Source of the DNA: Lachnospiraceae bacterium
Lineage (GTDB): Bacteria > Bacillota > Clostridia > Lachnospirales > Lachnospiraceae
Length of the DNA stretch: 64,000 bases
Reading direction: 5' to 3'
NCBI GenBank assembly: GCA_024403615.1
Contig: JAKSRM010000008.1
Coordinates: forward strand, 273 to 64,272
Part shown: piece by piece, positions 3 to 32,770 of the stretch
Layout: each line of letters begins with the position of its first letter
Position numbering within the stretch: position 1 is the stretch's first letter
Notes under the pieces: model-generated
The model's input: only the letters and a program-made list of their open reading frames with translations
What the model was told of the DNA's origin: nothing
The model's database searches: none
Position numbers and translations under genes: made by a program

Positions 3-1079
3 AAATACGAGCGTCCAAAATACCTTGATCCTAGCATCAAGACTTACTTCAGAAAGAGTGCATTCAGCAAAGCTGGTGGCTTTACCGTTCCAAATATTAC
101 TGACCGTCCGATTTCTATCCGAGAGAACTTCCGCCGTGCAATGATGCATGAGAATCCTGCATGGGTTCCAAACTCAACCACAGACTTTAACTTTGCAATG
201 CTTACGGTAGTTACCGGTATGCCAGAAGCTGACTGGACATGGACCGAGCGTACCGAATACAAAGACTGGTTCGGCGTTGAATGGATGTATGTTCCGGAAG
301 CTGGCGGCCCTATGTTAAAGCCAAACACCCAGTTCCTGGATGACATTACCGATTGGAAAGAAAAAGTTAAATTCCCGAACCTGGATGAATACGATATTGA
401 AGGTTGCTGCAAGAAATGGTTAGAGACCTGTGATCCAGAAAAAGTTTACCATGTAAATATTGGCCAAGGTTGCACCGAACGTTTAGTAGCTCTTCGTGGT
501 GGTTATACCGATGCTATGTGTGACATGGCTCTGGAACCAGAAGCAGTTCGTGAATTCTTAGAAGCTTTCGTCGATTGGGAAATTCAGCTGATTGATAAGC
601 TTTGCGAATATCTGCCATTAGAATATGTAACTTATCATGATGACTGGGGAACAGAAAGAGATTCCTTCTTCAGCGAAGCGATGATGGATGCTATGGTATA
701 TCCTCCAACAAAGAGACTCTTCGACCATATCCGTTCCAAAGGCGTTTTCATCGAGCTTCATAGCTGCGGATGCATCAAACGTTTCGTTCCTTATATGATC
801 GACCTTGGCGTAAGTATGATGCAGATTCAGGCTCGTGCGAATGATTTCAAAGCTTACAAAGCTCAGTACGGCGACAAGATTGGTATCGAAGTTGGTGTAA
901 TGCCTACTCCTGGTATGACAAAAGACGAAGCTGTTGCTCGCATTCATGAAATCGTTGATGACTTCTCTGCTGGCGGCGGAATGATTTCTTCCTTCATGAG
1001 CCCAGACCCAGAACTGCTTTGGGATGGCACCATGGAACTGTACTACTACAGCCGCGAGAAATACGAAGGCGAAGCTTAA
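3..1079 (+). CDS. URO-D/MtaA-family corrinoid methyltransferase-like protein, 5'-truncated by the window edge
   Basis: The frame is open from nt 3, with no stop before the ATG at 141. Residues encoded before 141 (..ISIRENFRRAMMHENPAWVP) align with the N-terminal 'KENY..RGE.PEWIP' segment of the neighbouring paralogues, so the true start lies upstream of the window. The C-terminal half has family-like 'DDWGTE', 'ELHSCGC' and 'SAGGGM' segments. Confidence 0.75.
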   Translation, partial: KYERPKYLDPSIKTYFRKSAFSKAGGFTVPNITDRPISIRENFRRAMMHENPAWVPNSTTDFNFAMLTVVTGMPEADWTWTERTEYKDWFGVEWMYVPEAGGPMLKPNTQFLDDITDWKEKVKFPNLDEYDIEGCCKKWLETCDPEKVYHVNIGQGCTERLVALRGGYTDAMCDMALEPEAVREFLEAFVDWEIQLIDKLCEYLPLEYVTYHDDWGTERDSFFSEAMMDAMVYPPTKRLFDHIRSKGVFIELHSCGCIKRFVPYMIDLGVSMMQIQARANDFKAYKAQYGDKIGIEVGVMPTPGMTKDEAVARIHEIVDDFSAGGGMISSFMSPDPELLWDGTMELYYYSREKYEGEA

Positions 1080-1113
1080 AACAATTACTTCTTATAAAGA
1101 AACTGTATAAAAC

Positions 1114-1148
1114 AAAAAGGCGCTTGGAAATCCAAGCGCCTCTTTATT
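1114..1148. terminator. Bidirectional rho-independent terminator between convergent genes
   Basis: Perfect 9-bp GC-rich stem ggcgcttgg / ccaagcgcc (1119-1127 / 1132-1140) with loop aaat. It is flanked by an A-run upstream and tctttatt downstream. Confidence 0.75.
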
Positions 1149-1164
1149 ATCGAATGATATGAAA

Positions 1165-2193
1165 TTATTTTTTGTAGAATTCGCGTGATACTTCATGCAT
1201 AACTTCGTTAACCATATCTCTCTTCCAGATAGCTTTCTGATCGTTCGGATCTGGAATGATGAAGGAAGCCATGAAGCAGAAACCGCCGCCTGGTGCGTAG
1301 GTATTCGCTACGTCCCAAACGATTTCCCGGATCTGCTCTTCGTTTAAGTCCGCCTGGAAGGTGGAAGAAGAGTTAATGCAGCCTGCCATTACGAACTTGC
1401 TACCATATTTTTCTTTAATAGCTACTAAGTCGTTGCAGTTCTGAGCTGGGTTCCATACGTTAACGCCAAGCACGTTAACCATATCGTCTACGAAGCATTC
1501 ACATTTACCACAGTTATGGAAGCTTACGAACATATCTCTGTCATGAGCGATGTCGGATAATCTCTTATAATGTGGAAGTAAGAATTTTTCGTACATTTCT
1601 ACAGAAATGAAAGGATTTCCCCATGCAGCAGTATCGTCTACTAAAGACATGATATCTGGCTGATAGTAATCGATCGAACGATTAACAACGTCTACGTAGA
1701 AATCGCTTAAGTACTGGAATAATTCTTCGCATTCTTCTGGTTCTTCATATAATGCGCAAAGACCTTCTGTGAAGCCCATGAATGCCATTAAATGCTGGAA
1801 GTAACCGGTTCCTGCTACACCATACTGTACAGCCTGTTTGGAACGGTCGATATTTGCTTTCTCTAAATCTTTCTTTGCTAACTGTTCGAAATCGATTTCG
1901 TCAAGATTTGGAGCTTTGATGACGTCACGCCATTTTGTGATGTCGTCAAGAATGAAGTCCCATGTCTTAGGAATCATAGCGCCACCAGCTTCTTTGCTGG
2001 TTACATGCTCAACGCCCCAGATGTCCTTATGATCGCCGTTTGGATCCATAGCTTTCATTAAGAAAGATGGTGATGCGCCAGCGGTTGCTCTTTCCCATTT
2101 GTAGGAAGGATCTGCTGCCATGTGTGGAATCCACTCAGGAACTTCGCCACGTAAACACATAAAATAGTTTTCTTTTTCTGTTAACTGTGCCAT
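1165..2193 (-). CDS. URO-D-family corrinoid methyltransferase, paralogue 1 of 6 (putative substrate:corrinoid MT-I)
   Basis: 342 aa. Full-length similarity to the other five paralogues, with shared motifs IPKTWDFILDDITKW, MAFMGFTEGLCAL, DDTAAWGNPF, HNCGKCE and APGGGF. SD AAGGAGAG lies upstream of the ATG. Confidence 0.85.
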   Translation of the reverse strand: MAQLTEKENYFMCLRGEVPEWIPHMAADPSYKWERATAGASPSFLMKAMDPNGDHKDIWGVEHVTSKEAGGAMIPKTWDFILDDITKWRDVIKAPNLDEIDFEQLAKKDLEKANIDRSKQAVQYGVAGTGYFQHLMAFMGFTEGLCALYEEPEECEELFQYLSDFYVDVVNRSIDYYQPDIMSLVDDTAAWGNPFISVEMYEKFLLPHYKRLSDIAHDRDMFVSFHNCGKCECFVDDMVNVLGVNVWNPAQNCNDLVAIKEKYGSKFVMAGCINSSSTFQADLNEEQIREIVWDVANTYAPGGGFCFMASFIIPDPNDQKAIWKRDMVNEVMHEVSREFYKK

Positions 2194-2216
2194 TGTTAAC
2201 TCTCCTTGTATTTTTA

Positions 2217-3242
2217 TTATTTTTTGTAGAATTCTTTACTGATTTCAAACATTACTTTGTTGATAGTATCTTTCTTCCACTGCATGTATTTGTCCGTCTT
2301 ATCGTCGATCAGTAAGAATACCTGGAAGAAGAAGCCGCCGCCTGGAGCATATTTGTTAGCTACATCCCAAAGAATGTCGCGAATCTTTTCTTCTGTTAAA
2401 TCGTCTGCTACGAAAGTTGAAGAACCATTGATACATCCGGAAAGAATCAGTCTGTTACCGAATTTTGCTTTGATACCAGCAAGGTCGTTGCAGTTCTGTG
2501 CAGGGTCCCATGCATTGATACCAACGGTGTTAACCATATCATCTAAGAAGATTTCGCATTTACCACAGTTGTGGTAAGTAATCGGAAGATCTCTTTCCTT
2601 AGCGTAATCGGTAAGTCTTGCGTAACGAGGTACGAAGAATTTCTGGAACATATTCAGGGATACGAAAGGATTTCCCCAAGCTGCTGTATCATCACCGATA
2701 GACATTACGTCTGGTTTGTATAAATCAATAGTTTTTTCAATAACCTGGCAGTAGAAATCTGTTAAGTAATCGAACAATGCTTCGCATTCTTCTGGTTCTT
2801 CCGAAAGAGCGCAAAGGCCTTCGGTGAATCCCATAAATGCCATTAAGTTCTGGAAGATTCCGCCGCCGCCAGCGCCATAGGTAACTGCCTGATTCTCGCG
2901 GTCTACTGGCATTCTTTCCATATCTTTTTTAGCCATCATTTCCCAGTCAATGCCTTCCAGTGATGGAGCTTTAATAACATCATGCCATTTTGTGATGTCG
3001 TCAAGAATGAAGTCCCATGTCTTAGGAATCATTCCACCTGCTGCTTCTTTGCTGGTAATGTACTCAACGCCCCAAATATCTCTGTGGTCGCCGTTTGGAT
3101 CCATAGCTCTCATCATAAAGGATGGTGATGCTCCACCAGTAGGTCCTTTGATTGCTGGGTCCATAGTAATAACTGGAATCCATTCTGGCTGTTCGCCTCT
3201 AATACAACGTAAATAGTTCTCTTTTTCTGTTAACTGTGCCAT
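2217..3242 (-). CDS. URO-D-family corrinoid methyltransferase, paralogue 2 of 6
   Basis: 341 aa with the same motif set as paralogue 1. Its stop is only 23 nt from the paralogue 1 start, so the two are probably co-transcribed. Confidence 0.85.
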   Translation of the reverse strand: MAQLTEKENYLRCIRGEQPEWIPVITMDPAIKGPTGGASPSFMMRAMDPNGDHRDIWGVEYITSKEAAGGMIPKTWDFILDDITKWHDVIKAPSLEGIDWEMMAKKDMERMPVDRENQAVTYGAGGGGIFQNLMAFMGFTEGLCALSEEPEECEALFDYLTDFYCQVIEKTIDLYKPDVMSIGDDTAAWGNPFVSLNMFQKFFVPRYARLTDYAKERDLPITYHNCGKCEIFLDDMVNTVGINAWDPAQNCNDLAGIKAKFGNRLILSGCINGSSTFVADDLTEEKIRDILWDVANKYAPGGGFFFQVFLLIDDKTDKYMQWKKDTINKVMFEISKEFYKK

Positions 3243-3320
3243 AGTTTTTCTCCCTTCCTAATTTTAGGTATGAAATATCTTTGTCCTATGGATAAAATGT
3301 TATCACATGGGCTATTAGAT

Positions 3321-3358
3321 GTAAATAAAAAAGGCCTCCGGGAATTCCCGAAGGCCTC
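3321..3358 (-). terminator. Rho-independent terminator downstream of paralogue 3
   Basis: On the minus strand: aggccttcggg-aatt-cccggaggcct (10 of 11 bp paired) followed by tttttatttac. Confidence 0.7.
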
Positions 3359-3380
3359 ATTTCATAAGATCTGATTCGAA

Positions 3381-4406
3381 TTATTTCTTGTAGAACTCGT
3401 GTCCGATTTCACGCATAGCTTTGTTAACAGTGTTCTTTCTCCAGATATCGAATTCGTTTGTTTCATCAGGAATGATGAAGTGGCTCTGGAAGAAGAATCC
3501 GCCGCCTGGAGCGTACTTATTAGCTACGTCCCAAAGAATGTCGTAAATCTTCTCTTCTGTTAAGTCTTTAACTTCGAATGTTGTAGAACCGTTGATACAT
3601 CCGGACATGATCAGGTTGTTGCCGAATTTCTTCTTCAGTGCTAACAGGTCATTGCAGTCCTGAGCTGGGTCCCAAACCTTAACACCAACAATATTAACCA
3701 TATCGTCCATGAAGCTTTCGCATTTACCGCAGTTATGATAAGTAACGAAAAGACCTCTGTCTTTTGCATACTGTGTAAATCTAGCATAACGTGGAACGAA
3801 GAACTGCTGGAACATTGGAAGAGAAACGAAAGGATTTCCCCATGCAGCTGTATCATCAACGAGCATGATTGCGTCTGGCTGATACAGATCAATGGTATGA
3901 TCCATGATCTCGCAGTAGAAGTCTGTGATGTAATCGAACAGTGCTTCGCACTCTTCTGGTTCATCAAATAATGCGCAAAGGCCTTCGGTAAATCCCATGA
4001 ATGCCATTAAAGCCTGGAATAATCCAGAACCGCCAGTAGCGTAAGTAACGATCTGGTTCTCACGGTCTGGTTTGAACATTTCAAGGTCTTTCTTTGCCAT
4101 CTGTTCCCAATCAATGCCTTCCAGTGATGGAGCTTTGATTACGTCATGCCATTTTGTGATGTCGTCAAGAATGAAGTCCCATGTCTTAGGAATCATTCCG
4201 CCAGCAGCTTCTTTGCTTGTGATGTATTCAACACCCCAAATGTCCTTGTGGTCTCCGCCTGGGAACATGTGTTTCATTAAGAAAGATGGAGATGCAGAAG
4301 TTGTAGGTCCTTTAATTGCACGATCCATCGTGATATGTGGAATCCATTCTGGCTGTTCGCCACGGACTGCCATCATATAATTTTCGCGTTCTGTTAACTG
4401 TGCCAT
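3381..4406 (-). CDS. URO-D-family corrinoid methyltransferase, paralogue 3 of 6
   Basis: 341 aa with the same motif set; closest by eye to paralogues 2 and 4. Confidence 0.85.
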   Translation of the reverse strand: MAQLTERENYMMAVRGEQPEWIPHITMDRAIKGPTTSASPSFLMKHMFPGGDHKDIWGVEYITSKEAAGGMIPKTWDFILDDITKWHDVIKAPSLEGIDWEQMAKKDLEMFKPDRENQIVTYATGGSGLFQALMAFMGFTEGLCALFDEPEECEALFDYITDFYCEIMDHTIDLYQPDAIMLVDDTAAWGNPFVSLPMFQQFFVPRYARFTQYAKDRGLFVTYHNCGKCESFMDDMVNIVGVKVWDPAQDCNDLLALKKKFGNNLIMSGCINGSTTFEVKDLTEEKIYDILWDVANKYAPGGGFFFQSHFIIPDETNEFDIWRKNTVNKAMREIGHEFYKK

Positions 4407-4421
4407 AGTTTTTTCTCCTAA

Positions 4422-5450
4422 TTAGTTCTTTTTGTAGAATTCTTTACTGATTTCATCCATAACGTTGAATACAGTATCTCTTCTCCAGATATCATATTTA
4501 TTTGTTTCATCAGGAATGATGAAGCTTGCCTGGAAGAAGAAGCCGCCGCCTGGAGCGTATTTGTTAGCTACATCCCAAAGGATGTCACGGATTCTGTCTT
4601 CTGTTAAGTCGTCAGCTACGAATGTAGAAGAACCGTTGATACATCCGGACATGATCAGTCTGTTGCCATATTTGTTCTTAAGTGCTAACAGGTCGTTGCA
4701 GTCCTGAGCTGGGTCCCATACAGTAATGCCAACTTTTTCAATCATATCTGGCATGAAGCTTTCGCATTTACCGCAGTTATGATAAGTAACGAAAAGACCT
4801 CTGTCTTTTGCAAACTGTGTAAATCTGCTGTAACGAGGAACGAAATATCTCTGGAACATTGGAAGAGATACGAAAGGATTTCCCCATGCAGCGGTATCGT
4901 CTGTTAACTGGATTGCATCTGGTTTGTAGTAATCAATGCAGTTTTCCATGATTGTGCAGTAGAAGTCTGTAAAGTAATCGAATAATGCTTCGCACTCTTC
5001 TGGTTCTTCGGATAATGCGCAAAGGCCTTCAGTGAATCCCATGAATGCCATCAATGCCTGGAAAATACCTGTGCCGCCAGTCATGTAAACAACAACTTTG
5101 TTCTCACGGTCAACCTTGAACATTTCAAGATCTTTCTTTGCCATCTGTTCCCAATCAATGCCTTCCAGTGATGGAGCTTTGATTACATCGTGCCATTTTG
5201 TGATGTCGTCTAATAAGAAGTCCCATGTCTTAGGAATCATAGCGCCGCCAGCTTCTGCACTGGTTACATATTCAACACCCCAAATGTCCTTGTTGTCTCC
5301 GCCAGGTCTCATCTGTCCCATTAAGAAGGATGGGGATGCCATGCAGGTAGGGCCCTTGCCGCTACGGTCCATACGGATTACTGGAATCCATTCTGGCTGC
5401 TCGCCGCGAACTGCCATTAAGTAGTTTTCACGTTCTGTTAACTGTGCCAT
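4422..5450 (-). CDS. URO-D-family corrinoid methyltransferase, paralogue 4 of 6
   Basis: 342 aa with the same motif set. It lies 15 nt upstream of paralogue 3, so the two probably form an operon. Confidence 0.85.
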   Translation of the reverse strand: MAQLTERENYLMAVRGEQPEWIPVIRMDRSGKGPTCMASPSFLMGQMRPGGDNKDIWGVEYVTSAEAGGAMIPKTWDFLLDDITKWHDVIKAPSLEGIDWEQMAKKDLEMFKVDRENKVVVYMTGGTGIFQALMAFMGFTEGLCALSEEPEECEALFDYFTDFYCTIMENCIDYYKPDAIQLTDDTAAWGNPFVSLPMFQRYFVPRYSRFTQFAKDRGLFVTYHNCGKCESFMPDMIEKVGITVWDPAQDCNDLLALKNKYGNRLIMSGCINGSSTFVADDLTEDRIRDILWDVANKYAPGGGFFFQASFIIPDETNKYDIWRRDTVFNVMDEISKEFYKKN

Positions 5451-5492
5451 TGTTATATCTCCTTATGATTATTTATTTTTATACGATGCCCG

Positions 5493-5518
5493 CAAGGCTG
5501 TCATAAAAGACAGCCTTG
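5493..5518 (-). terminator. Stem-loop between paralogues 5 and 4 (possible terminator or processing hairpin without a U-tract)
   Basis: Perfect 10-bp stem caaggctgtc / gacagccttg with a 6-nt loop. No T-run follows on the minus strand, so function is uncertain. Confidence 0.35.
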
Positions 5519-5536
5519 AAAATATCATATTAAGTA

Positions 5537-6553
5537 CTATTTGTAGAATTCGTGGCTGATTTCTTCCATAACTTTGTTTACAGTATCTCTCTTCCAGATA
5601 GCGTGCTGATCGGTAGGATCTGGAATGATGAAGTGACACTGGAATGCGAAACCGCCGCCTGGTGCATATTTATTAGCAACATCCCAGCAGATCTCACGGA
5701 TCTGGTCTTCTGTGATGTTAGGGTCTTCGAAAGTCTGGGAAGAGTTAATGCATCCGGTAAGAACTAACTTGTTACCGAATTTCTTCTTGATTGCTTCCAG
5801 GTCGTTGCAGTTCTGAGCTGGGTTCCAGCCGCTGATACCAACAACGTTTACCATGTCATCCATGAAGATTTCGCATTTTCCGCAGTTATGAAGAGTTACA
5901 GGGATGTCTCTGTCATGAGCATAGTCTGCCATTCTCTTATAACGAGGAATGAAATAGTGCTGCATCATCTCTAATGATACGAAAGGATTTCCCCATGCTG
6001 CTGTATCATCTGTGATTCCCATGATGTCTGGTTTGTAAAGGTCGATAGTTTTTTCGATAACTTCACAATAGAAATCGCATAAGTAATCAAACAGAGCGTC
6101 GCACTCTTCTGGTTCTTCATATAAAGCGCAAAGGCCTTCGGTGAAGCCCATGAATGCCATTAAGTGCTGGAAGTATCCAGTTCCGCCTACACCGTAGGAA
6201 CCAGCCTGGTTTACATAGTCACGATGAGCAAGGTCTTTCTTTGCCATCTGTTCCCAGTCAAATCCGCTGATATCAGGAGCTTTGATTACATCATGCCATT
6301 TTGTAATGTCGTCAAGCAGGAAGTCCCATGTTCTAGGAAGCATTCCGCCTGCTGCTTCTTCACTTGTGATGTACTGAACACCAAAGATGTCCTTGTGGTC
6401 TCCATCTGGATAATAATGTTTTCTTAACCATGATACGGAAGCGTTTCCTGAAGGTCCTTTTCTTGTAGCATCCATGCTAATATGTGGGATCCATTCTGGC
6501 TGCTCGCCTCTTAAAGCCATTAAATAATTTTCTCTTTCAGTTAACTGTGCCAT
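5537..6553 (-). CDS. URO-D-family corrinoid methyltransferase, paralogue 5 of 6
   Basis: 338 aa. Motifs LPRTWDFLLDDITKW, MAFMGFTEGLCAL, DDTAAWGNPF, HNCGKCE and APGGGF. Confidence 0.85.
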   Translation of the reverse strand: MAQLTERENYLMALRGEQPEWIPHISMDATRKGPSGNASVSWLRKHYYPDGDHKDIFGVQYITSEEAAGGMLPRTWDFLLDDITKWHDVIKAPDISGFDWEQMAKKDLAHRDYVNQAGSYGVGGTGYFQHLMAFMGFTEGLCALYEEPEECDALFDYLCDFYCEVIEKTIDLYKPDIMGITDDTAAWGNPFVSLEMMQHYFIPRYKRMADYAHDRDIPVTLHNCGKCEIFMDDMVNVVGISGWNPAQNCNDLEAIKKKFGNKLVLTGCINSSQTFEDPNITEDQIREICWDVANKYAPGGGFAFQCHFIIPDPTDQHAIWKRDTVNKVMEEISHEFYK

Positions 6554-6594
6554 AGATATTTCTCCTTACCTATTTATAATTTTGCTAGCGTGCT

Positions 6595-6603
6595 ATTTTA
6601 TCA
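6595..6603 (-). promoter_or_regulatory. Candidate extended -10 element (TGATAAAAT) for paralogue 5
   Basis: Minus-strand TGATAAAAT lies about 42 nt upstream of the ATG at 6553. The identical 12-mer atatgataaaat recurs upstream of paralogue 6. Confidence 0.3.
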
Positions 6604-6821
6604 TATTTTAGTCAAGATATGAAATGCCCTACTCTCACATTCATAATATATTACCAAAAGAATCGTCGTGAAGACATTTCTTTGGAAAAATCAACACGAT
6701 TCCCATTTTTGTTGACTCCCAAAGCCTTCTTTTTGTATTTAAAAGATACCGATTTAGTGAAATCCATCCGTTATAATAGATATGACATAATAAATAAGAA
6801 GTATTTTGATTGGAGAACGTA

Positions 6822-7637
6822 ATGATTATTATTGGGGAAAAAATCAACGGGGCGATTCCGTCTATTAAAGATGCCATCTTAAACAAGAATGAAGAATTAA
6901 TCAAAGAGCGCACCATCCTTCAGGATGAAGCCGGTGCACATTTCTTAGATTGCGCTCCAAGTACATCTACTGACATTGAATACGATACCATGGTTTGGCT
7001 GATCCAGTTAATGCAGGGCGTATCCGAAAAGCCTCTTTGCATCGATAGTCCGAATGCCTCCTTACTGGCCAGAATTTTAGAAGAAGGCTGGGTAAATAAA
7101 CCAGGTATGGTAAATTCCGTAAATGAAGAAAGCAACAAGTGTGAAATCATTTTCCCACTAATTGCCCATACGGATTGGAACGTGGTAGCTCTTACTTGTG
7201 ATGCCGATGGCATTCCAATGGAAGCATCCAAAAAAATCGATATTGCGAAACGAATGATTGATAAAGCAGTCAAGTACGGCGTGGATTTGAAAAATCTGCA
7301 CATTGATCCTTGCGTTATGGCCCTTGCTGCTATGGCAGATTCCATGAACAACTTCATCGAATGTATTGAAGGAATTCACGAATATGCACCAGAAGTAAAA
7401 GTAACCGGCGCCATCTCGAATATTTCCTTTGATATGCCAGCGAGAAAATATGTAAACAATACTTGTATTGCTCTTGCGATGAAGGCCGGATTAGATAGCG
7501 CGATTCTGGATCCTACCAACGTCGATATGATGAGTACCATTTATGCTTGCGAAGCATTAAAAGGAACCGATAAAAATGGAAGAAAATATAACCGGGCTTA
7601 CCGCCAGGGAAAACTTGGAATAACACCGAAAAAATAA
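6822..7637 (+). CDS. Pterin-binding methyltransferase (methyl-corrinoid:tetrahydrofolate methyltransferase, MT-II-like)
   Basis: The N-terminus 'MIIIGEKINGAI' is typical of MeTr/AcsE/MetH pterin-binding (DHPS-like) domains. I prefer the ATG at 6822 with a GGAG 6 nt upstream over the TTG at 6810 in the ORF track. Confidence 0.8.
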   Translation: MIIIGEKINGAIPSIKDAILNKNEELIKERTILQDEAGAHFLDCAPSTSTDIEYDTMVWLIQLMQGVSEKPLCIDSPNASLLARILEEGWVNKPGMVNSVNEESNKCEIIFPLIAHTDWNVVALTCDADGIPMEASKKIDIAKRMIDKAVKYGVDLKNLHIDPCVMALAAMADSMNNFIECIEGIHEYAPEVKVTGAISNISFDMPARKYVNNTCIALAMKAGLDSAILDPTNVDMMSTIYACEALKGTDKNGRKYNRAYRQGKLGITPKK

Positions 7638-7662
7638 AGTACTATGTATTGGAGGGATAATA

Positions 7663-8301
7663 ATGTTTGATTTTGAAGAACTGAAAAATGTAATGGCAGA
7701 TCTGGACGAAGACCGGATGAAAGAAATCTTAGACGATGTAATGCAAGACGGCGGAAGCGAAGCGAAGAAAGCTTTGGAAGCTTGCCAGCAAGGCATGGAC
7801 ATCGTTGGAAAACGTTTTGAAAGTGGCGAATATTTCGTAGGCGATTTAATTTACGCTGGTGAAATTATGACCGATGCTGTTGAAATCATGAAAGAGGCTT
7901 TAGCAGGAGAAGCTGGAGAAGGTGGAGAAAAGACAAAAATGATTCTTTGCACCGTAAAAGACGACCTTCATGATATCGGAAAAAATATCGTAAAAGCAAT
8001 GCTGGAAGCAAACGGCTTTGAAGTACTGGATCTGGGAATCGATGTTCCTGCAGAGAAGGTTGTTGAAACTGTTAAAGCAGAAAACATCAAAATCGTTGCT
8101 CTTTCCGGTGTTTTAACTCTTGCTTTGAATTCTATGAAAGATACCGTTGACGCTCTGAAAGCAGCTGGCTTAACCGATGTAAAGGTTATCGTTGGTGGAG
8201 CTCCTGTATCCGAAAATTCTATCGCAATTACTGGTGCCGATGAATGGGCTTATTCTCCTCAGAAGACCGTTGATACATGTAAGGCATGGGCTAACAAATA
8301 G
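7663..8301 (+). CDS. Corrinoid (B12-binding) protein
   Basis: 212 aa with an N-terminal helical cap plus a Rossmann B12 domain. It has the DxHxxG motif 'DLHDIG' and a downstream 'VIVGGAP'. SD GGAGGG lies upstream. Confidence 0.9.
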   Translation: MFDFEELKNVMADLDEDRMKEILDDVMQDGGSEAKKALEACQQGMDIVGKRFESGEYFVGDLIYAGEIMTDAVEIMKEALAGEAGEGGEKTKMILCTVKDDLHDIGKNIVKAMLEANGFEVLDLGIDVPAEKVVETVKAENIKIVALSGVLTLALNSMKDTVDALKAAGLTDVKVIVGGAPVSENSIAITGADEWAYSPQKTVDTCKAWANK

Positions 8302-8316
8302 CAGAAAGCAGGCATT

Positions 8317-9489
8317 ATGAATAAAAAAGAATTACAGAAAGAAAGAATTGCGTTGTTCCGTGATGCTGCAAATTTTAAACATGTAGACCGCATCCCTCAC
8401 TTAGGCTGCGTCGTTACATGGAAAATCTTAGATGCTGGCTACACTTTAAGTGAAGCCATGACCAACTTCGACGTACTGGAAAAAAGCGTTCGTTATTTCC
8501 TGGATAAATATCCGGTAGATGCTATGCTGGATATTGGTATCCGAAATCAGTTCAATGTAACAGAAGCTTTCGGAACTCCAGGTTACTACTATTACAATGA
8601 CGAAGTAGTCGGTATTCATGACCATGCATACTGCACCGTCGATACCTTAATGGATTTCTTAAACGATCCAGACAGATATACCTGGGAAAAAATTCTTCCG
8701 GAAAAATACGGAGAGGATTGGAAAAAGAAAGACCTGGCAACTTGGAAGAAAACTTTCAGCGAATATATGAAATATACAAAATTCGTATTGAAGATGGCTT
8801 CTGTTACCGGGAAAGAATATGGTCTGCCTAGTATGGCTCCAAACAATCCAATGAAAGGTTCCATCCAATTCGCTATTGAAGAATTAGAAGCAAACCTTTT
8901 AGGAATCAAGGGCTTATCTCTTGCTCTTCGGAGAAATGCCGATCAGTTGGAAACCTTTGTAAGAGGATGGGACGAACAGCATATTGATCCGATTATTGAA
9001 GAAATCAAAAAGTCCAATGGACCAAGCGAGAAATATTGCTTCGATGCCTCCATTATGATGTTGGCTCACAATCTGTTACGGCCAGAACAGTTTGAGCGGT
9101 TCTATTGGCCAAGCTTGAAAAAACTTTTAGATGCATACGCAGACAAGAAGATGAACGTTCGTATTTTCGCAGAAGGTTCTATCCTGCGTTACGCAGATTA
9201 CTTTAAGGATTATCCAAAGGGAGTTCTTACGTTCCATATCGAAAAAGATGATCCGTTCGAGTTCCGTCAGGCATTCCCGAATGCATGTATCATGGGTGGT
9301 ATGACCACCGACATGTTATATATGTCTTCTCCGGAAGAGTGTGTAGATTATACGAAGAAGCTTTGTGATGAACTTGGAAAAGATGGCGGTTTCATTTTCA
9401 GTGAAAACAAGATGCTGTCCTACAAGAATGATGCAAAGAGCGAGAACCTTCTTGCCGTTTGCGAATTCTTGAATTCCTACAAAATGTGA
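8317..9489 (+). CDS. Divergent URO-D-family methyltransferase-like protein (390 aa)
   Basis: Overall URO-D-like layout: 'ERIALFRDAANFKHVDRIPHL' at the N-terminus and 'KDGGFIFS' near the C-terminus. It is co-directional with, and 15 nt downstream of, the corrinoid protein. It lacks the HxCG segment present in the six paralogues. Confidence 0.65.
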   Translation: MNKKELQKERIALFRDAANFKHVDRIPHLGCVVTWKILDAGYTLSEAMTNFDVLEKSVRYFLDKYPVDAMLDIGIRNQFNVTEAFGTPGYYYYNDEVVGIHDHAYCTVDTLMDFLNDPDRYTWEKILPEKYGEDWKKKDLATWKKTFSEYMKYTKFVLKMASVTGKEYGLPSMAPNNPMKGSIQFAIEELEANLLGIKGLSLALRRNADQLETFVRGWDEQHIDPIIEEIKKSNGPSEKYCFDASIMMLAHNLLRPEQFERFYWPSLKKLLDAYADKKMNVRIFAEGSILRYADYFKDYPKGVLTFHIEKDDPFEFRQAFPNACIMGGMTTDMLYMSSPEECVDYTKKLCDELGKDGGFIFSENKMLSYKNDAKSENLLAVCEFLNSYKM

Positions 9490-9505
9490 TGAATAGGAGA
9501 ATATT

Positions 9506-9631
9506 ATGAATAAATACTTATCATATCCGGAAGGCTATAATAAACTGGTTCACGATATGTTACCGTTTTATTTAAGACCGGCCAAAAAAATGCTGATGCG
9601 GCTTTTACTGGTTATTTTACGAGATGGTTGA
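9506..9631 (+). CDS. Small ORF (41 aa), unannotated in the ORF track
   Basis: ATG at 9506 is preceded by AGGAG. It translates to MNKYLSYPEGYNKLVHDMLPFYLRPAKKMLMRLLLVILRDG. Its stop is 13 nt before the next gene's ATG, which has its own AGGAG. Confidence 0.35.
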   Translation: MNKYLSYPEGYNKLVHDMLPFYLRPAKKMLMRLLLVILRDG

Positions 9632-9644
9632 TTAGGAGAAAGAC

Positions 9645-10118
9645 ATGGAAGGATTTACTGTTGGATTAGCATTACTCGACTTTGTACCGGTAATTGCTTT
9701 CGGACTTGCAATGCTGTTTTTAGCATTAAAATTTAAAAGTGCATTGTTTATCATCGGCGCAATACTTGTTTTATTAGGTGGCGTGTTCAAAGCTTCCTGG
9801 AAACTGATTTTAGGAACCAGCAAAAAAGATGTGAAATGGATGAACAAAATGATGTGGCCTTGCATGGGCGTAGGTTTTGTTCTAATGATTGTTGGTGTAA
9901 TTGTAGGCCTGAAGAACATTAATTGGGCTGCAGTTGGAAGTGCCATTGTTAGCTTCCCGGCAATTATTTTCTTTATCATCTGGATTGTGGTTTTAGTTTT
10001 AATGACGGTATTTAAAAAGACAAAATTCCGTAAAGACAATGCAAAGGATAACTGGATTGCAGAAATCATGAACTCCATTGGAATGATCAGTCTCATGATT
10101 GCAATATTGGTTGCCTGA
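9645..10118 (+). CDS. Small integral membrane protein (about 5 TM), unknown function
   Basis: 157 aa, strongly hydrophobic with several predicted helices. I recognise no family. Confidence 0.6.
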   Translation: MEGFTVGLALLDFVPVIAFGLAMLFLALKFKSALFIIGAILVLLGGVFKASWKLILGTSKKDVKWMNKMMWPCMGVGFVLMIVGVIVGLKNINWAAVGSAIVSFPAIIFFIIWIVVLVLMTVFKKTKFRKDNAKDNWIAEIMNSIGMISLMIAILVA

Positions 10119-10140
10119 ATTCTTTAAAAAACAATATCCA

Positions 10141-10170
10141 AAAAGGCCTACGAAACGTAGGCCTTTTTAT
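10141..10170. terminator. Bidirectional rho-independent terminator
   Basis: aggcctacg-aaa-cgtaggcct perfect stem, flanked by aaaa upstream and tttttatt downstream. It sits between convergent genes. Confidence 0.75.
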
Positions 10171-10225
10171 TATGCGATGAAGGAATTTCATCGTGTTTTC
10201 TGAAATTAAGCTTTCGTAAAAACTT

Positions 10226-11257
10226 TTATTTCTGGTAGAAAGTTTCTGCACATTCTGCGATATATTTGTTTACCGTATCTCTCTTCCAGATAGCTTCTTG
10301 ATCGTTTGGATCTGGAATGATGAAAGTTACTAAGAATGCAAATCCGCCGCCTGGTGCATAGTTGTTTGCAACGTCCCAAACGATGTCATGAATCTGATCT
10401 TCTGTCAGGTCGCCCATGAAGGTCTGAGAAGAGTTGATGCAGCCGGTAAGAACCAGTTTGCTACCGAATTTCGCTTTGATTGCTGCTAAGTCGTTGCAGT
10501 TCTGAGCTGGGTTCCATCCGTTAACACCGATTTCATTTACCATATCGTCCATGAAGATTTCGCATTTTCCGCAATCATGGAAAGTAATAGGAATATTTCT
10601 TTCTTTTGCCAGAGAAGCCATTCTCTTGTAATGAGGCAAGAAGAATTCACGATACATATCCAGAGATACGAAAGGATTGCCCCATGCTGCATTATCATCG
10701 CCCATCTGCAGGATGTCTGGTTTGTAGTAATCGATGGTCTTTACTGCGATGTCATAATAAAAGTCACTTAAGTACTGAAGAAGTTCTTTACATTCTTCTG
10801 GCTCATCAAACAGAGCGCAAAGGCCTTCGGTAAATCCCATGAATGCCATCAGATCAAGGAAGAATCCGCTGTGGCAGCCATACTCTAATGCTGTCTCGTT
10901 GCGGTTGATTTTTGCCATTTCCAGATCTTTCTTTGCCATCATTTCCCAGTCAACACCGGAGAAATCTGGAGCTTTAATAACGTCTCTCCATTTTGTAACG
11001 TCGTCTAAAAGGAAGTCCCATGTTTTTGGAAGCATGCCGCCAGCTGCTTCTTTGCTGGTAACATATTCAACGCCCCAAATATCTTTGTGGTCGCCTTTTG
11101 GATCAAACTGTCCATTTAAAATAGACGGTGAAGCGCCTGCGCTTGGACGCATTCTTCCGCTATCGGAATTGTCTGCTAATACGATGTGTGGAATCCACTC
11201 TGGAACTTCGCCAGCCAGACATCTTAAATAGTTTTCTTTTTCTGTTAAACGTGCCAT
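10226..11257 (-). CDS. URO-D-family corrinoid methyltransferase, paralogue 6 of 6 (detached copy)
   Basis: 343 aa. Motifs LPKTWDFLLDDVTKW, MAFMGFTEGLCAL, DDNAAWGNPF, HDCGKCE and APGGGF. SD GGAGGTAGG lies upstream. Confidence 0.85.
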   Translation of the reverse strand: MARLTEKENYLRCLAGEVPEWIPHIVLADNSDSGRMRPSAGASPSILNGQFDPKGDHKDIWGVEYVTSKEAAGGMLPKTWDFLLDDVTKWRDVIKAPDFSGVDWEMMAKKDLEMAKINRNETALEYGCHSGFFLDLMAFMGFTEGLCALFDEPEECKELLQYLSDFYYDIAVKTIDYYKPDILQMGDDNAAWGNPFVSLDMYREFFLPHYKRMASLAKERNIPITFHDCGKCEIFMDDMVNEIGVNGWNPAQNCNDLAAIKAKFGSKLVLTGCINSSQTFMGDLTEDQIHDIVWDVANNYAPGGGFAFLVTFIIPDPNDQEAIWKRDTVNKYIAECAETFYQK

Positions 11258-11464: not shown

Positions 11465-13213
11465 TCATTCCGCCTCTACTGATATAAATGCAAATTGATT
11501 CACATCAAAAAGTCCCATATCCGTCAAGCGGATTTCCGGAATAACTGCCAGAGACATGAACGTCAGCGTCATCACCGGCTCGACGTCTTCGTTGATTCCT
11601 AATACTTCGTGCGCCGTTTTGTGAATTTGAGTCAATCTTTCATTTACCCATTCTCCACTCTGATCGCTCATCAAACCAGCGATTGGTAACGGCATGGACT
11701 CAATTACTTGTCCATCTTTCACCAGAACAGCGCCGCCTTCTTGCTTCTGCAACGCGTTAACTGCCGCTTCCATTTCTTCATCCGATACGCCTACAACAAT
11801 AATATTATGGGAGTCGTGAGCAATGGTAACTGCAATAGCGCCAGCCTGGATTCCATATCCATTCAGGAAACCGCAAGCCACATTTCCCGTCCCCTTATGG
11901 CGCTCCACTACGGCAAATTTTGCCACATCAATATCTGCTGTTTTTATAAATTCTCCAGCTTCGTCCAGTTTTACAGTTTCCACTTTCTTTTCCGTAACAA
12001 CGCCGCCAGGCAAAATTTTGACGGTATTTACCCGGTTGGATTTCAGATGCATTTTCAGCTTCTCTGCCGAGAAATCTTTCATCCTTACGCTGTTTTTCAC
12101 AACGTCGATTGGATACTTTTCGATTTCTGGAAGATAGGTTCCGTTTTCTGCAACCAGTTCTCCTGCGATAAATACTTTTCTGATTTCAAAATTCTTCAGG
12201 TCTTTTAAGAAAACCAAATCCGCCCGTTTTCCCGGAGCAATAGCGCCTCGATCTTTCAGTCCGAAGCATTCCGCTGCATTTACCGTCGCCATGCGAAGTG
12301 CCGTAATGGCATCCAATCCCTCTTCCACGCAGATTCTTAAATGATTGTCTAAATGGCCTTCGTTTAACATGGTCTTTGGCTGACGGTCATCGGAGCAAAG
12401 CACGAACCTTCCCGCGTTTTCTTTCGTCACCGCTTTCAGATTGTCCCGGAGATTATGGCAAGCAGAGCCTTCCCGGAGCATTACATACATTCCGCTGGCG
12501 ATTCGCTCATTAATTTCCTCTATGGTTGCGCATTCATGATCCGCTGCGATTCCGCAACTTGCATATGCGTTCAAGTCCATACCTGCAACTCCGGCAGCAT
12601 GGCCATCAATTACCTTTCCTGCCTTTTTCGCTGCAACCAGCTTATTGATTGCGGCTTCGTTATTTCCGATAACGCCGACGAAATCCATAAATTCGCCTAA
12701 GCCTAAAACAGCGTCGTTTTTCAAAGGCTCTTCCATCTGCTCCGCGTCAATGTTGGCGCCAGAAGTTTCAAAAGGTGTCGATGGTACACAAGACGGAAGC
12801 ATATATTGAATGTCCAGCTTTGTCCGTTTTCCTGCCTCCAGCATATAGTCCAATCCCCGAAGGCCGCATACATTGACGATTTCATGAGGGTCTGCGATGA
12901 TGGTGGTTCCACCATGAGGGACAACCATCCGGCCCAATTCTTCCGGTGAAACATAGGAAGATTCAATATGAATATGGCTGTCAATAAAGCCTGGAGCAAC
13001 GAAGGATCCCGCAGCGTCCATAACTGCCGCGTCCTTATTTACTGGTAAGGACCCATAAGCGCCAACACCAGCAATCTTTCCTTCTGTTATGGCAATATCG
13101 CCCTGTATTACATTTCCGCCGTATACGTTTACGACCTTTCCATTTTTTATAATTAAATCCGCAGCCTTTCTTCCTGCTGCCACATCAATGATTTTCATCA
13201 TTTGTTCTTTCAT
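11465..13213 (-). CDS. ade: Adenine deaminase
   Basis: 582 aa. Amidohydrolase metal motif 'FIDSHIHIESS', with length and N-terminal beta-barrel segment typical of Ade. Confidence 0.88.
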   Translation of the reverse strand: MKEQMMKIIDVAAGRKAADLIIKNGKVVNVYGGNVIQGDIAITEGKIAGVGAYGSLPVNKDAAVMDAAGSFVAPGFIDSHIHIESSYVSPEELGRMVVPHGGTTIIADPHEIVNVCGLRGLDYMLEAGKRTKLDIQYMLPSCVPSTPFETSGANIDAEQMEEPLKNDAVLGLGEFMDFVGVIGNNEAAINKLVAAKKAGKVIDGHAAGVAGMDLNAYASCGIAADHECATIEEINERIASGMYVMLREGSACHNLRDNLKAVTKENAGRFVLCSDDRQPKTMLNEGHLDNHLRICVEEGLDAITALRMATVNAAECFGLKDRGAIAPGKRADLVFLKDLKNFEIRKVFIAGELVAENGTYLPEIEKYPIDVVKNSVRMKDFSAEKLKMHLKSNRVNTVKILPGGVVTEKKVETVKLDEAGEFIKTADIDVAKFAVVERHKGTGNVACGFLNGYGIQAGAIAVTIAHDSHNIIVVGVSDEEMEAAVNALQKQEGGAVLVKDGQVIESMPLPIAGLMSDQSGEWVNERLTQIHKTAHEVLGINEDVEPVMTLTFMSLAVIPEIRLTDMGLFDVNQFAFISVEAE

Positions 13214-13234: not shown

Positions 13235-14326
13235 TTATTTTTTCTTTATCAAATTTCCCAGACTATCCAAAGTCTTCATGATTTTATTTTTGCGTTTCAC
13301 GTTTTCCGCGGACTTTCCTTTAAATTCCCGGAACTGGGAAATAATGTCACGAGAATTTTTCCACAGATTTTTCTTCAAGTCTGAAATCGTTTTTACATCG
13401 TTTTCTTTTAAGTTCTCGTACAGCTTGTCCACGAACTCTTCCAATTCTTCCGGGCTCATGGTTTCAATAATGTTATTTAAATATCCACTAATCACCTTGC
13501 TGGAGAAGGTTTTTTCCTCTTTATAGATGAAATGTTTTCCCAGAACTTTCCAGGAAAACGGCTGATGCTGCATCAGCGAAACGCTGGAACTTTCAATGGT
13601 CAAATAAGGGAAGCTACCCATCAGCATTCCGATAATGGAAGATTCCGGAACGAAGGCCAGCAATTTTTGTTCAATGTTTTTATATTCTGCGCTCTCGCTC
13701 ATATCGTCGATAAAGCCAGGTCCGTCATGGTTAAACACATATTGGATTCTTTCCTGAATCCGCTCTGGACAATGAATGGCTGCCCATACCGCCAGATTTC
13801 CGCCTTTGGAATGGCCGCCTAAATAAATCTGCTTTTTCGGATATTTTGCAGCGATATTTTCCACATACTCTGTGGCTTCCAACTGGGCTGGAGTTCCATG
13901 AGTAAAGGACATATTTAAATTCTCTTTCCATCCTACTAAGGTATTATCCGTTCCACGAAAAGCGATAAACACGGAATTTTTCGGGAGAAGGAAGGTCATG
14001 GCGCTGAACTGTTTTTCCGTTTCTTCGGAATGGAGTTCCACGTAATTGATGACCTGAATCTTTTTAAAGCGATCATAATTGGAAATAATTTCTGCCAGTT
14101 TCAGCGCATCTTCCCGCATGATTTCCAAACCACAGAACTGGTCTTCTTTCGGTAAGGTTTTCGTTATTTCATAAGCCTCTTTCAGGCTCTGCTTTTTCCC
14201 TTTTGCGCGAGCGTAATTCACATAGGCAAGGCAACAGAAAATCAGCCCGTCGATTGCATTCAATCCGCTCTGCTCGAAGCTAATGTCTCCCCGCCACTCT
14301 AAATAATCGAAAATATTGCCTTCCAT
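13235..14326 (-). CDS. DUF2974 (Mbeg1-like) alpha/beta-hydrolase-fold protein
   Basis: 'FRGTDNTLVGWKEN' and nucleophile-elbow-like 'GHSKGGNLA' are characteristic of this family. Confidence 0.6.
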   Translation of the reverse strand: MEGNIFDYLEWRGDISFEQSGLNAIDGLIFCCLAYVNYARAKGKKQSLKEAYEITKTLPKEDQFCGLEIMREDALKLAEIISNYDRFKKIQVINYVELHSEETEKQFSAMTFLLPKNSVFIAFRGTDNTLVGWKENLNMSFTHGTPAQLEATEYVENIAAKYPKKQIYLGGHSKGGNLAVWAAIHCPERIQERIQYVFNHDGPGFIDDMSESAEYKNIEQKLLAFVPESSIIGMLMGSFPYLTIESSSVSLMQHQPFSWKVLGKHFIYKEEKTFSSKVISGYLNNIIETMSPEELEEFVDKLYENLKENDVKTISDLKKNLWKNSRDIISQFREFKGKSAENVKRKNKIMKTLDSLGNLIKKK

Positions 14327-17161: not shown

Positions 17162-18592
17162 TTATACTCCGTTTGGTATTTCTGGTGGAGTCTGACCATT
17201 TCCAAAACCTTCTGGCATGTTCTGTGGGTCAAAGCCTTCCGGCATCTGACCGCCATCTGGTGGCGTTTGTCCGCCGCCGAAACCATCTGGTGGAGTTTGA
17301 CCATTTCCAAAACCTTCTGGTGGCTGCATTCCTCCTGGTCCGCCCATTCCACCATTTTCTGACATACTACCACCATAGATGATTGTCGCCTTTTCGTCAA
17401 TATAGGTTCCATCTTCAGAATCCAGAAGTTCATCGCTCGGAGACTTGCTAGTTCCTGCAATCTGTCCGCCGTTGATACGAATGAATCCGTTGGAGTCAAT
17501 AACGTCTCCCTCGCTTCCCAGACTGGCGAAAATCGTCAGATGTCCACCGTTCATGGTAAAGACAGATACATTGTCTTCGTTAACGTTGATTCCATCGTCC
17601 TGGGAAAAGATATTGATATATCCGCTGTCAATGGTCATGTGCAATTCGCAGTCCAGTCCTTCAAAGGTGGTGCTGGTTATATTTAAGATTCCTGTTCCAG
17701 CTTCTTCGCCGGAAATCCGCATGGACTGGAAGCTATAGAAGGCGCCGTCCATTTTCCAAAGTTTCTTCTGAACAGTACTTCCTTCTTTTTTGTATTTGTT
17801 TTTCAATAGACGAAATACATTGGCACCAGAGAAATTATTCTCCGTTCCATCGGCAATAATTACCTGTACACCTGCGTTGCTCAAATCGGTTTCGTCAGTA
17901 TAGGTTTCCCGGTCTTCCCAGGTATTATCGCATTCATAAACATCATGGAACACGATAGCTGGAGCTACGGTGCAAGTAACATCTGCGCCCTTTAAAATTA
18001 CCGTAACCTTTGCTTCCTCGTTAGCGAAAGTGTCCTCTTCTTCGCCAAAGTCGAACCACAGCTGACCATTAAAAGAGCCTTCTACTATATAGGTTCCCGG
18101 CTCTGTAATATGGATGACCGGATTATTGTAGGCTTCTTCTGCGGAGTGCATCATTTCTGTCGGCAGGTCATTTCCTAAAACCGGCAAAGTGCTGAAAATA
18201 TAGTCTTCCAAACCTTCCGCGGTATATCTGGTTACCCATTCCTGTTCGCCGTCATAATTTTCTTTTGCGAAGTTTTCTGCCGGAATTTCCGGATAATATA
18301 CGATGTCATGGGCGATGTACGCCGCCAAGCCTTCTTCCGGTTCCGTTCCTTCAAACTGTTCCCCTTCAAAGGAAGGATCTACTTTCCAGGTGTAATCGAA
18401 TTCTTTTAATTCGGTTCCATCCAGGCTAGCGCTGGTTCCCTTTAATTGCAATAAATGGGCATCTTGGTAAAGCCCCGCGTCCGTTGCACCGCTTCCGCCC
18501 AACTCTTTCGTTTCATTGTGCAAAGAACCGCAGCCCGATAAAGCTAAGGCTGCGGTCAATCCTATAACAATAGCAGGAATTATTTTTTTCAT
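17162..18592 (-). CDS. Lipoprotein with carbohydrate-binding beta-helix domain (Cthe_2159/PF14262-like) and a Pro/Gly-rich C-terminal repeat tail
   Basis: Lipobox 'ALSGCG'. 'DDGINVN' and 'GDVIDSNG' repeats are typical of the family. The tail is PEGFGNGQTPP-type repeats. Confidence 0.6.
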   Translation of the reverse strand: MKKIIPAIVIGLTAALALSGCGSLHNETKELGGSGATDAGLYQDAHLLQLKGTSASLDGTELKEFDYTWKVDPSFEGEQFEGTEPEEGLAAYIAHDIVYYPEIPAENFAKENYDGEQEWVTRYTAEGLEDYIFSTLPVLGNDLPTEMMHSAEEAYNNPVIHITEPGTYIVEGSFNGQLWFDFGEEEDTFANEEAKVTVILKGADVTCTVAPAIVFHDVYECDNTWEDRETYTDETDLSNAGVQVIIADGTENNFSGANVFRLLKNKYKKEGSTVQKKLWKMDGAFYSFQSMRISGEEAGTGILNITSTTFEGLDCELHMTIDSGYINIFSQDDGINVNEDNVSVFTMNGGHLTIFASLGSEGDVIDSNGFIRINGGQIAGTSKSPSDELLDSEDGTYIDEKATIIYGGSMSENGGMGGPGGMQPPEGFGNGQTPPDGFGGGQTPPDGGQMPEGFDPQNMPEGFGNGQTPPEIPNGV

Positions 18593-19732: not shown

Positions 19733-19868
19733 TGTTTTCCTCCAAACTTTTTTATCATTATAGAAATTCGCAAAGGGTTTGTCATTATAAATTTGCTTTG
19801 TTCGAATCCCACCTTTGAACTTAAGCAAAACAAAAAACAAGGTCCACCAGACCTTGCTTTTGTTTTGA

Positions 19869-19956: not shown

Positions 19957-19966
19957 CATTGGTGCA

Positions 19967-27647: not shown

Positions 27648-27664
27648 TGATTTTCCTCAATAAA

Positions 27665-29035: not shown

Positions 29036-29037
29036 AA

Positions 29038-30804: not shown

Positions 30805-30842
30805 AATTTATGTACCAAGCCTTTCTTAATACTTGTGCTTTT

Positions 30843-32753: not shown

Positions 32754-32770
32754 GGAACAATACTCCTTAA

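Follow-up and report, generated by a model that had tools for sequence, protein, structure and literature searches.

Genes and signals of the methyltransferase region

The DNA analysed here is a 64,000-nucleotide stretch (hereafter the window) from a Lachnospiraceae bacterium (assembly GCA_024403615.1, contig JAKSRM010000008.1, positions 273 to 64,272, forward strand), which opens with a region rich in genes for methyltransferase-like proteins of the uroporphyrinogen decarboxylase (URO-D) superfamily, at window positions 3-11257. An earlier reading of the letters alone (the original prediction) had counted eight URO-D-superfamily genes around one corrinoid protein and one pterin-binding methyltransferase. 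From this 8:1:1 ratio it had proposed a hub-and-spoke system, in which many substrate-specific methyltransferases I (MT-I) feed one shared corrinoid and tetrahydrofolate module. The eight genes are real and all intact, with PF01208 above its gathering threshold in every one (8/8), while PF02310 and PF02607 match the product of 7663-8301 and PF00809 that of 6822-7637. A tblastn search of the whole window gave no second corrinoid protein, no second methylcorrinoid:tetrahydrofolate methyltransferase (MT-II) and no ninth URO-D gene. Our best overall explanation, held with moderate confidence, is that two independent units, an array of six paralogous genes and a separate cassette, make up the region and have become neighbours in this lineage.

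The six paralogues form one family of putative aryl methyl ether:corrinoid MT-I, and all lie on the minus strand. Their expected motifs were all recovered, namely MA(Q/R)LTE(K/R)ENY, TWDF..LDD.TKW, MAFMGFTEGLCAL, AAWGNPF, H(N/D)CGKCE and APGGGF. Counted from the left, the genes are paralogue 1 (1165-2193, 342 aa), paralogue 2 (2217-3242, 341 aa), paralogue 3 (3381-4406, 341 aa), paralogue 4 (4422-5450, 342 aa), paralogue 5 (5537-6553, 338 aa), which is the array's first gene, and paralogue 6 (10226-11257, 343 aa), which the cassette separates from the rest. A strong terminator-like hairpin (3331-3358, minus strand) with 12 pairs, eight of them GC, and then a T-run lies in the 138 nt that part paralogue 3 from paralogue 2; after it comes a promoter-like site (3325-3297, minus strand), and both are pattern matches only. 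Read from 3358 to 3331, this hairpin would split the five-gene run into 5-4-3 and 2-1. With paralogue 6 standing alone, the pattern scans suggest at least three array transcription units.

Between paralogue 5 and the cassette lies a divergent intergenic region (6554-6821) that holds the promoter side of the array and the left junction of the cassette, as delimited by megablast breakpoints, junction alignment and sequence inspection; no Rfam family was matched within it. The cassette occupies positions ~6700-10220 on the plus strand and comprises five genes, including a 41-aa open reading frame (ORF) and a gene for a 157-aa membrane protein that had been overlooked. Its first gene (6822-7637) encodes a 271-aa pterin-binding MT-II, which scores 301 bits against a cutoff of 259 with the NCBIfam model NF005719 for methyl-tetrahydrofolate:corrinoid methyltransferases. 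As its start we prefer the ATG at 6822, which has a GGAG ribosome-binding site, to the TTG at 6810. The corrinoid protein (7663-8301) combines a B12-binding cap with a Rossmann domain and a DLHDIG motif of the His-on type, and is the only place in the window where the motif D.H..G...S.L...GG occurs. It is followed by the gene for a 390-aa URO-D-superfamily protein (8317-9489), which lacks an HxC motif and is a candidate MT-I of the CdmB/MtvB/MtoB-like kind. Directly 3′ of this gene lies that of the 41-aa micro-protein (9506-9631; MNKYLSYPEGYNKLVHDMLPFYLRPAKKMLMRLLLVILRDG), with the motif Y.SYPEGY..L...IPFY.RP.K.M.M.LL.IL.DG, for which no known family was matched. The 157-aa membrane protein (9645-10118) has about five transmembrane helices in its hydropathy profile and no Pfam or NCBIfam match. 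Finally, inverted-repeat and pattern scans revealed a perfect palindromic hairpin with a 13-bp stem (10139-10169), likely a bidirectional terminator for both the cassette and paralogue 6.

The remaining URO-D gene (3-1079, plus strand) is convergent with the array and complete except for its start codon, being cut by the window edge. Its 359-aa product is annotated as 'hypothetical protein' (P0241, locus tag MJ086_04720), carries an HSCGC motif and matches PF01208 at 32.5 bits. Between it and paralogue 1 is a terminator-like GC hairpin (1118-1141; 10 pairs, seven of them GC) that is a consensus match only. The eight URO-D genes, in which the original prediction saw six paralogues and two more distant members, span three families that differ widely. 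The 359-aa protein shares 24-29% identity with the six paralogues, gave no match in a sequence search of the Protein Data Bank (PDB), and shows no similarity to the characterised CdmB-type MT-I. BLASTP detects no significant similarity between the 390-aa protein and the other seven; only profile-profile comparison relates it to them, at 69% probability in the C-terminal half, with 'FAEGS' in place of 'HNCGK'. One sister species (L003) has a 97.8% identical orthologue of the 359-aa protein, on a contig that ends 330 bp past the gene, and another (L002) has none. A URO-D gene of similar size adjoins array-family genes in two further loci (L034 and L039).

Array and cassette in related genomes

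A scan of species-representative genomes found the same array in three sister species (L001/L014, L002 and L003) at 91-94% nucleotide identity. The six paralogues are 63-75% identical to paralogue 2, taken as the reference, and ~60-81% identical over all pairs, and in a neighbour-joining tree each copy has its own 1:1 orthologue in the sister species. Synonymous divergence (dS) is 0.2-0.9 between orthologues and 0.6-1.7 between paralogues, exceeding 1 in all but one paralogue pair. Taken with the 1:1 orthology, the larger dS between paralogues indicates that the duplications long predate the species splits. The ratio of non-synonymous to synonymous divergence (dN/dS) for orthologue pairs ranges from 0.007 to 0.098: 0.019-0.022 for paralogue 1 (orthologues in L001, L002 and L003), 0.007-0.012 for paralogue 2, 0.08-0.10 for paralogue 3, 0.03-0.06 for paralogue 4, 0.02-0.03 for paralogue 5 and 0.009-0.033 for paralogue 6. 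The array is old, strong purifying selection acts on each copy, and none is decaying. Pseudogenisation, raised earlier as a possible objection, is the opposite of what we see, since all eight URO-D genes are intact and under purifying selection. The family occurs in herbivore-gut Lachnospiraceae as tandem arrays of 2-6 genes, and the close relatives all come from herbivore or other gut metagenomes (horse, sheep, yak, buffalo, rumen). Sister genomes hold at least eight array-family copies on two or three contigs, so the window gives no genome-level stoichiometry.

The cassette is missing from this place in the sister species. Megablast breakpoints against L003, L002 and L014, with junction alignment, show that homology ends at ~6661-6697 on the left and place the right cassette junction at ~10222; the segment ~6662-10223 has no counterpart at the same site in any of the three. 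In L014 the site (5037-5104) is empty, with paralogues 5 and 6 only 67 bp apart and a terminator hairpin between them. The matching site carries a Cthe_2159 carbohydrate-binding gene in L003 (site at 4887-6582) and a C-terminal fragment of a tyrosine decarboxylase gene in L002 (site at 5308-6206). Parsimony favours an array of six genes whose 5/6 spacer received different DNA in different lineages. A further Cthe_2159 gene is present in the window at 17162-18592. No convincing target-site duplications or inverted repeats were found at the cassette borders, and a mobile-element origin of the cassette was considered and rejected, as no integrase or transposase adjoins it in the window. The adenine deaminase gene that adjoins paralogue 6 (11465-13213, minus strand) is also present in L014, at 95% nucleotide identity, and is missing from the same place in L003, another indication that this neighbourhood is plastic.

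The cassette itself recurs elsewhere. The same five-gene set is found, in other gene orders and surroundings, in metagenome loci L027-L031, where the small ORF encodes 41-42 aa. Although dS is saturated, each of the five window genes is conserved in L031; the MT-II orthologue there is 90% identical and also 271 aa long, and the micro-protein is 95% identical. The family of the 390-aa protein (URO-D390) shows 65-93% identity over more than 120 clusters. Its partners were counted over the 26 metagenome loci that have a URO-D390 homologue and are 7 kb or longer. The micro-protein is encoded near it in 23 of these, mostly 11-25 nt downstream, and the membrane protein, which may adjoin on either strand, in 18. 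The corrinoid protein is found in 12 and MT-II in 10, and a true 341-aa array-family member in none. Searches with tblastn (up to ±10 kb) around 26 array-family genome loci found no corrinoid protein, MT-II, 390-aa or 157-aa homologue, and a search for the B12-binding motif in the same loci also found none. Loci of more distant members (L034-L038 and L041) were equally negative. A corrinoid protein is encoded on the same strand as the 390-aa gene and near its homologues in 12/26 loci, whereas the six paralogues lie on the opposite strand to it and the score for their family is 0/26. As no linkage is shared between the 26 array loci and the 26 cassette loci, the 8:1:1 ratio is a local, lineage-specific juxtaposition, and hub-and-spoke is not supported as a conserved design.

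The cassette is also self-contained, in that it includes a candidate MT-I of its own. This 390-aa protein matches the characterised MT-I CdmB (PDB 9rui) with E = 2.4e-5 as a single sequence and 4.6e-8 as a family profile, and it is the sole one of the eight URO-D proteins that is similar to a biochemically characterised MT-I. With the corrinoid protein and MT-II, the cassette would encode a full path from methyl donor to methyl-Co(III) to methyl-tetrahydrofolate. The membrane protein may be a substrate-uptake or anchoring partner, and the trio of URO-D390, 41-aa and 157-aa proteins may form a membrane-associated methyltransferase module for an unrecognised methyl donor; methyl-etherified plant sugars are a speculative candidate for this donor.

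The strongest of the alternatives, which we nonetheless judge unlikely, is that the region is a true hub-and-spoke unit, selected as such, in which all eight URO-D proteins are MT-I feeding the one corrinoid protein and MT-II. The cassette does sit exactly inside the array, which would be an improbable outcome of random landing among thousands of intergenic regions, and the window does hold one corrinoid protein and one MT-II. There is also one relative, L039, in which a pterin-binding gene and a DUF1638 gene (13442-14146, plus strand) stand side by side 4 kb from an array-family gene. However, the arrangement in the window is unique among the 26 array loci and 26 cassette loci, and the sister species keep their six paralogues under strong purifying selection with no cassette at the site. 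Furthermore, the two units are encoded on opposite strands and have promoter and terminator signals of their own, the spacer is an insertion hot spot that takes up unrelated DNA, and the sister genomes hold two more family copies elsewhere. Here, gene counts from a single window suggested a hub and spokes, and comparative genomics showed lineage-specific juxtaposition, which is a caution for similar readings.

The original prediction also stated that no reductive activase is encoded in the window, and our data agree: no RACE/DUF4445 activase was found among ~30 ORFs run through Pfam, nor among the other large ORFs (V-type ATPase, Rnf, methionyl-tRNA synthetase, MBOAT), which were judged by eye. 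The same Pfam survey of ~30 ORFs found no DUF1638 or other B12-related gene in the window. Rfam searches, at gathering and E-value thresholds, gave no cobalamin riboswitch or leader but only sub-threshold terminator look-alikes. An ATP-dependent activase would be encoded outside the window. A distant activase is normal in Acetobacterium dehalogenans, which has ~20 CdmB (MT-I) paralogues and four activating enzymes, and where CdmC is activated by an activase encoded elsewhere (PMC13222342). DUF1638 genes adjoin the cassette in L027-L029 (in L027 at 8733-9395, minus strand). Genetic evidence from Phaeobacter connects this family with the function of B12-dependent methionine synthase (PMC5764234), and DUF1638 may be an accessory or reactivation factor.

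Elsewhere in the window, V-type ATPase and Rnf operons, judged by ORF sizes and N-terminal sequences, occupy 26961-41447 (minus strand). These would suit an anaerobe whose ferredoxin oxidation is coupled to an ion gradient, but they do not show acetogenesis; no Wood-Ljungdahl genes were recognised in the window. The only Rfam match above threshold is a tRNA (19870-19957, minus strand). The ORF at 18710-19918 runs into this tRNA, so the true start of the aldo/keto-reductase it encodes must lie further downstream.

Likely function of the array enzymes

The array enzymes were examined through one structural model and through family alignments. The AF2 model of paralogue 2 has a pLDDT of 92 and shows the UroD/MtaA fold, with TM scores of 0.60-0.68 in a Foldseek comparison with the PDB (entries up to April 2026); all matches were at superfamily level and no CdmB entry was returned. 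A PDB search with a single paralogue sequence gave no match, and among the clusters of ten distant array-family representatives none bears a name. Across 35 family members, the most distant at 45% identity, H224 and C226 never vary and C251 hardly does. Profile alignment to MtaA (4ay7) brings 'HNCGK' into register with the zinc motif 'HICGN'. The sequence of paralogue 2 is also that of an NCBI protein (P0001) from a Lachnospiraceae metagenome-assembled genome, named 'veratrol--corrinoid protein metyltransferase', and the array proteins, at ~39 kDa, are close in size to the MT-I enzymes OdmB and VdmB (~32-36 kDa). From these features, the six paralogues are most likely substrate-specific MT-I of the short, zinc-containing OdmB/VdmB type. 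A comparison between paralogues is consistent with different substrates: 58 alignment sites are constant within orthologue groups and take at least three states between groups, and many of these sites fall just after predicted β-strands and around the HxCG and APGGGF motifs. Such group-specific sites at the catalytic face of the TIM barrel suggest substrate-specific paralogues, being the pattern expected of them but not proof. Identity with HemE was rejected, as Pfam aligns just the C-terminal half, with scores of 33-56 bits, no NCBIfam HemE model was matched, and the HxCG motif is present.

The neighbourhoods of array-family relatives point to aromatic substrates. In four Lachnospiraceae species (L016, L017, L018 and L020), a single-copy homologue, ~54-55% identical, lies within a polyphenol-type island. 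The island in L016 (4112-16893) begins with genes for a fumarate-reductase-like flavoprotein, NMO, a PhlG/DAPG-type hydrolase and an MFS transporter, followed by the URO-D gene (54% identical), a carboxylesterase/BD-FAE (feruloyl-type) gene, and genes for the large and Fe-S small subunits of a pyrogallol-transhydroxylase-like molybdoenzyme. Among 96 genes that surround family members in 12 related loci, Pfam identified four members each of the PhlG/DAPG-type hydrolases, carboxylesterase or BD-FAE-type esterases, and MFS transporters. It identified three members each of the MatE transporters, pyrogallol-hydroxytransferase-like molybdoenzymes with Fe-S subunits, and molybdenum-cofactor synthesis genes. 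L038 is also among the loci with phenolic-type neighbour genes. Because genes of this sort are the neighbours to be expected of enzymes for methoxylated or hydroxylated plant aromatics, we read the array-type paralogues as enzymes that probably act on aromatics; one example of a route would start at syringate or trimethoxybenzoate and lead through gallate and pyrogallol to phloroglucinol. The guess in the original prediction that methoxylated aromatics are demethylated here is thereby strengthened as to compound class, although both the substrates and the corrinoid dependence of these enzymes are inferred. A different setting is seen in L034 (8206-13465), and also in L035 and L036, where genes for a PucR-type regulator and an array-family URO-D protein (343 aa) are followed by those for a CobW/COG0523-type GTPase, a 151-aa protein and a second URO-D protein (363 aa). 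Such a metallochaperone, encoded between two enzymes with HxC motifs, is a hint of zinc (or cobalt) loading.

Several points weigh against our reading of array and cassette. The 5/6 spacer is a rearrangement hot spot with differing inserts, so the co-location of the two units could be accidental. A corrinoid protein lies within 10 kb in 0/26 array-family genome loci, with none in L034-L041, and linkage, the usual evidence of corrinoid dependence, is therefore missing outside the window. The third zinc ligand of MtaA, a Cys ('APGCG'), is a Gly in the array family ('APGGG'); the nearly invariant C251 is a possible stand-in. When the array-family profile was searched against the PDB it missed CdmB, and the only match was MtaA, a methyltransferase of type MT2, with E = 0.035. 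The assignment to the OdmB/VdmB type comes from the NCBI name, protein size and zinc motif.

One improbable alternative is that the six paralogues work without corrinoid, by zinc-dependent, MetE-like direct methyl transfer or by phenolic-acid decarboxylation, the cassette being an accidental neighbour. It would account for a family that has a corrinoid protein nearby in no other locus, and for the CobW-type GTPase between the two URO-D genes of L034-L036. The family also has weak matches to the short methionine-synthase model NF002119, and polyphenol islands need a gallate-type decarboxylase while no UbiD gene is present in the examined stretch. However, we know of no superfamily member that O-demethylates without corrinoid, and the absence of any such precedent counts against the idea. 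The HxC motif, moreover, belongs to the methyltransferase branch rather than to HemE, a pterin-binding gene and DUF1638 lie close to the family in L039, and acetogens are known to have MT-I genes with no corrinoid-protein gene beside them (PMC13222342). The broader claim, that the whole ~341-aa HxCG family is a corrinoid-protein-independent, zinc-dependent class of anaerobic demethylases or phenolic-modifying enzymes and the B12 cassette an unrelated insertion, strikes us as quite improbable.

Some Lachnospiraceae, Parasporobacterium among them, make methanethiol and dimethyl sulfide from methoxy-aromatics, and array-family members are present in Parasporobacterium metagenome-assembled genomes. 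This would suit MT2-type enzymes (MtaA/MtbA/MtsA-like) that pass methyl groups from a methylated corrinoid protein to thiols or sulfide, as would the facts that among solved structures the family profile retrieves MtaA alone, with the HxC zinc motif in register, and that the best NCBIfam matches are to MtaA, MtbA and CmuA models. We regard an MT2 role for the six paralogues as highly doubtful, since all of these scores are far below cutoff (30-42 against 235-600 bits), the third zinc Cys of MtaA is replaced, the neighbours are phenolic-catabolism and not sulfur genes, and six divergent acceptor-specific MT2 would be without precedent while MT-I expansions have one (PMC13222342). The same scores led us to reject the paralogues as MtaA/MtbA equivalogs.

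Returning to the array as a set of MT-I enzymes, each would transfer the methyl group of a different plant-derived aryl methyl ether to the Co(I) of a corrinoid protein. In this one genome they may draw on the corrinoid protein and MT-II of the cassette; in relatives, they would have to use a corrinoid protein encoded elsewhere. Methoxyl groups on lignin-derived phenolics are a large one-carbon pool in the rumen and hindgut, and the gut Lachnospiraceae genes that harvest them are hardly characterised. Six ancient and individually conserved MT-I-like enzymes offer a ready panel for work on substrate specificity and biocatalysis, from a family now tied to catabolic islands of the pyrogallol/phloroglucinol type. 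Three leads follow from the genomic contexts, namely the micro-protein and membrane-protein partners of a CdmB-like methyltransferase, the tie between the array family and polyphenol islands, and the orphan arrays of MT-I-like enzymes with zinc motifs that have no corrinoid protein nearby.

Comparison with known corrinoid-dependent systems

As had been proposed, the region holds component families of corrinoid-dependent demethylase systems, since Pfam and NCBIfam identify UroD-superfamily methyltransferases, a B12-binding protein and a pterin-binding MT-II. Gut Clostridia demethylate dietary methoxy-aromatics by means of an MT-I, a corrinoid protein, an MT-II and an activating enzyme (PMC12915777; bioRxiv 10.1101/357640). 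The loci of Eubacterium callanderi, E. limosum and Blautia producta (Glm) carry a single MT-I apiece (in one case two) together with a corrinoid protein of their own (PMC12915777). The array differs from these gut-acetogen O-demethylase loci in having six MT-I-like genes that are normally unlinked to any corrinoid protein. The type I mlp clusters (PMC10418091) are alike in that several UroD-superfamily methyltransferase homologues stand beside one corrinoid protein. Those clusters encode MtaA-like proteins and a RACE activase, however, whereas the window lacks an activase, contains a pterin-binding MT-II, and encodes proteins far more distant from MtaA.

MtaA and MtbA, the methylcobamide:CoM methyltransferases (MT2) of methanogens, share with the array the UroD fold and an HxC motif that aligns on the MtaA zinc site, and differ in the far-sub-cutoff scores and the third zinc cysteine, which the array lacks. 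Use of coenzyme M is not expected in a Lachnospiraceae bacterium.

Two groups of MT-I offer further comparisons. OdmB and VdmB are UroD-superfamily MT-I enzymes (PMC10418091) and contain zinc, while CdmB and the Moorella enzyme do not (PMC13222342). The cassette would work in the manner of the systems with long, zinc-free MT-I, namely MtvABC (Moorella), MtoABCD (Methermicoccus) and CdmBCA (A. dehalogenans). Its 390-aa protein matches CdmB and likewise has no HxC motif, and, as in cdmBCA, this MT-I candidate is clustered with a corrinoid protein and MT-II. The match to CdmB covers only the C-terminal ~160 residues, and the cassette protein has 390 aa against ~430 for CdmB. The cassette further differs from all three systems in adding the 41-aa micro-protein and, usually, the 157-aa membrane protein to its MT-I; to our knowledge, no such partners occur in MtvABC, MtoABCD or CdmBCA.

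For the array, the nearest counterparts are the OdmABCD and Vdm systems of A. dehalogenans (OdmB, O87604; VdmB, Q6W001), four-component systems which pair a UroD-superfamily MT-I with a DxHxxG corrinoid protein and a pterin-binding MT-II that delivers methyl groups to tetrahydrofolate. The zinc of OdmB and VdmB has its parallel in the HxCG zinc-type motif of all six paralogues, and the name that NCBI gives the paralogues follows VdmB. In contrast to those systems, the array repeats its gene six times in tandem, the window encodes no activase, and neither here nor in relatives do the array genes share an operon with a corrinoid protein, MT-II or activase. In short, every component is of a known enzyme kind, and the locus is therefore a further example of such kinds rather than a new system.

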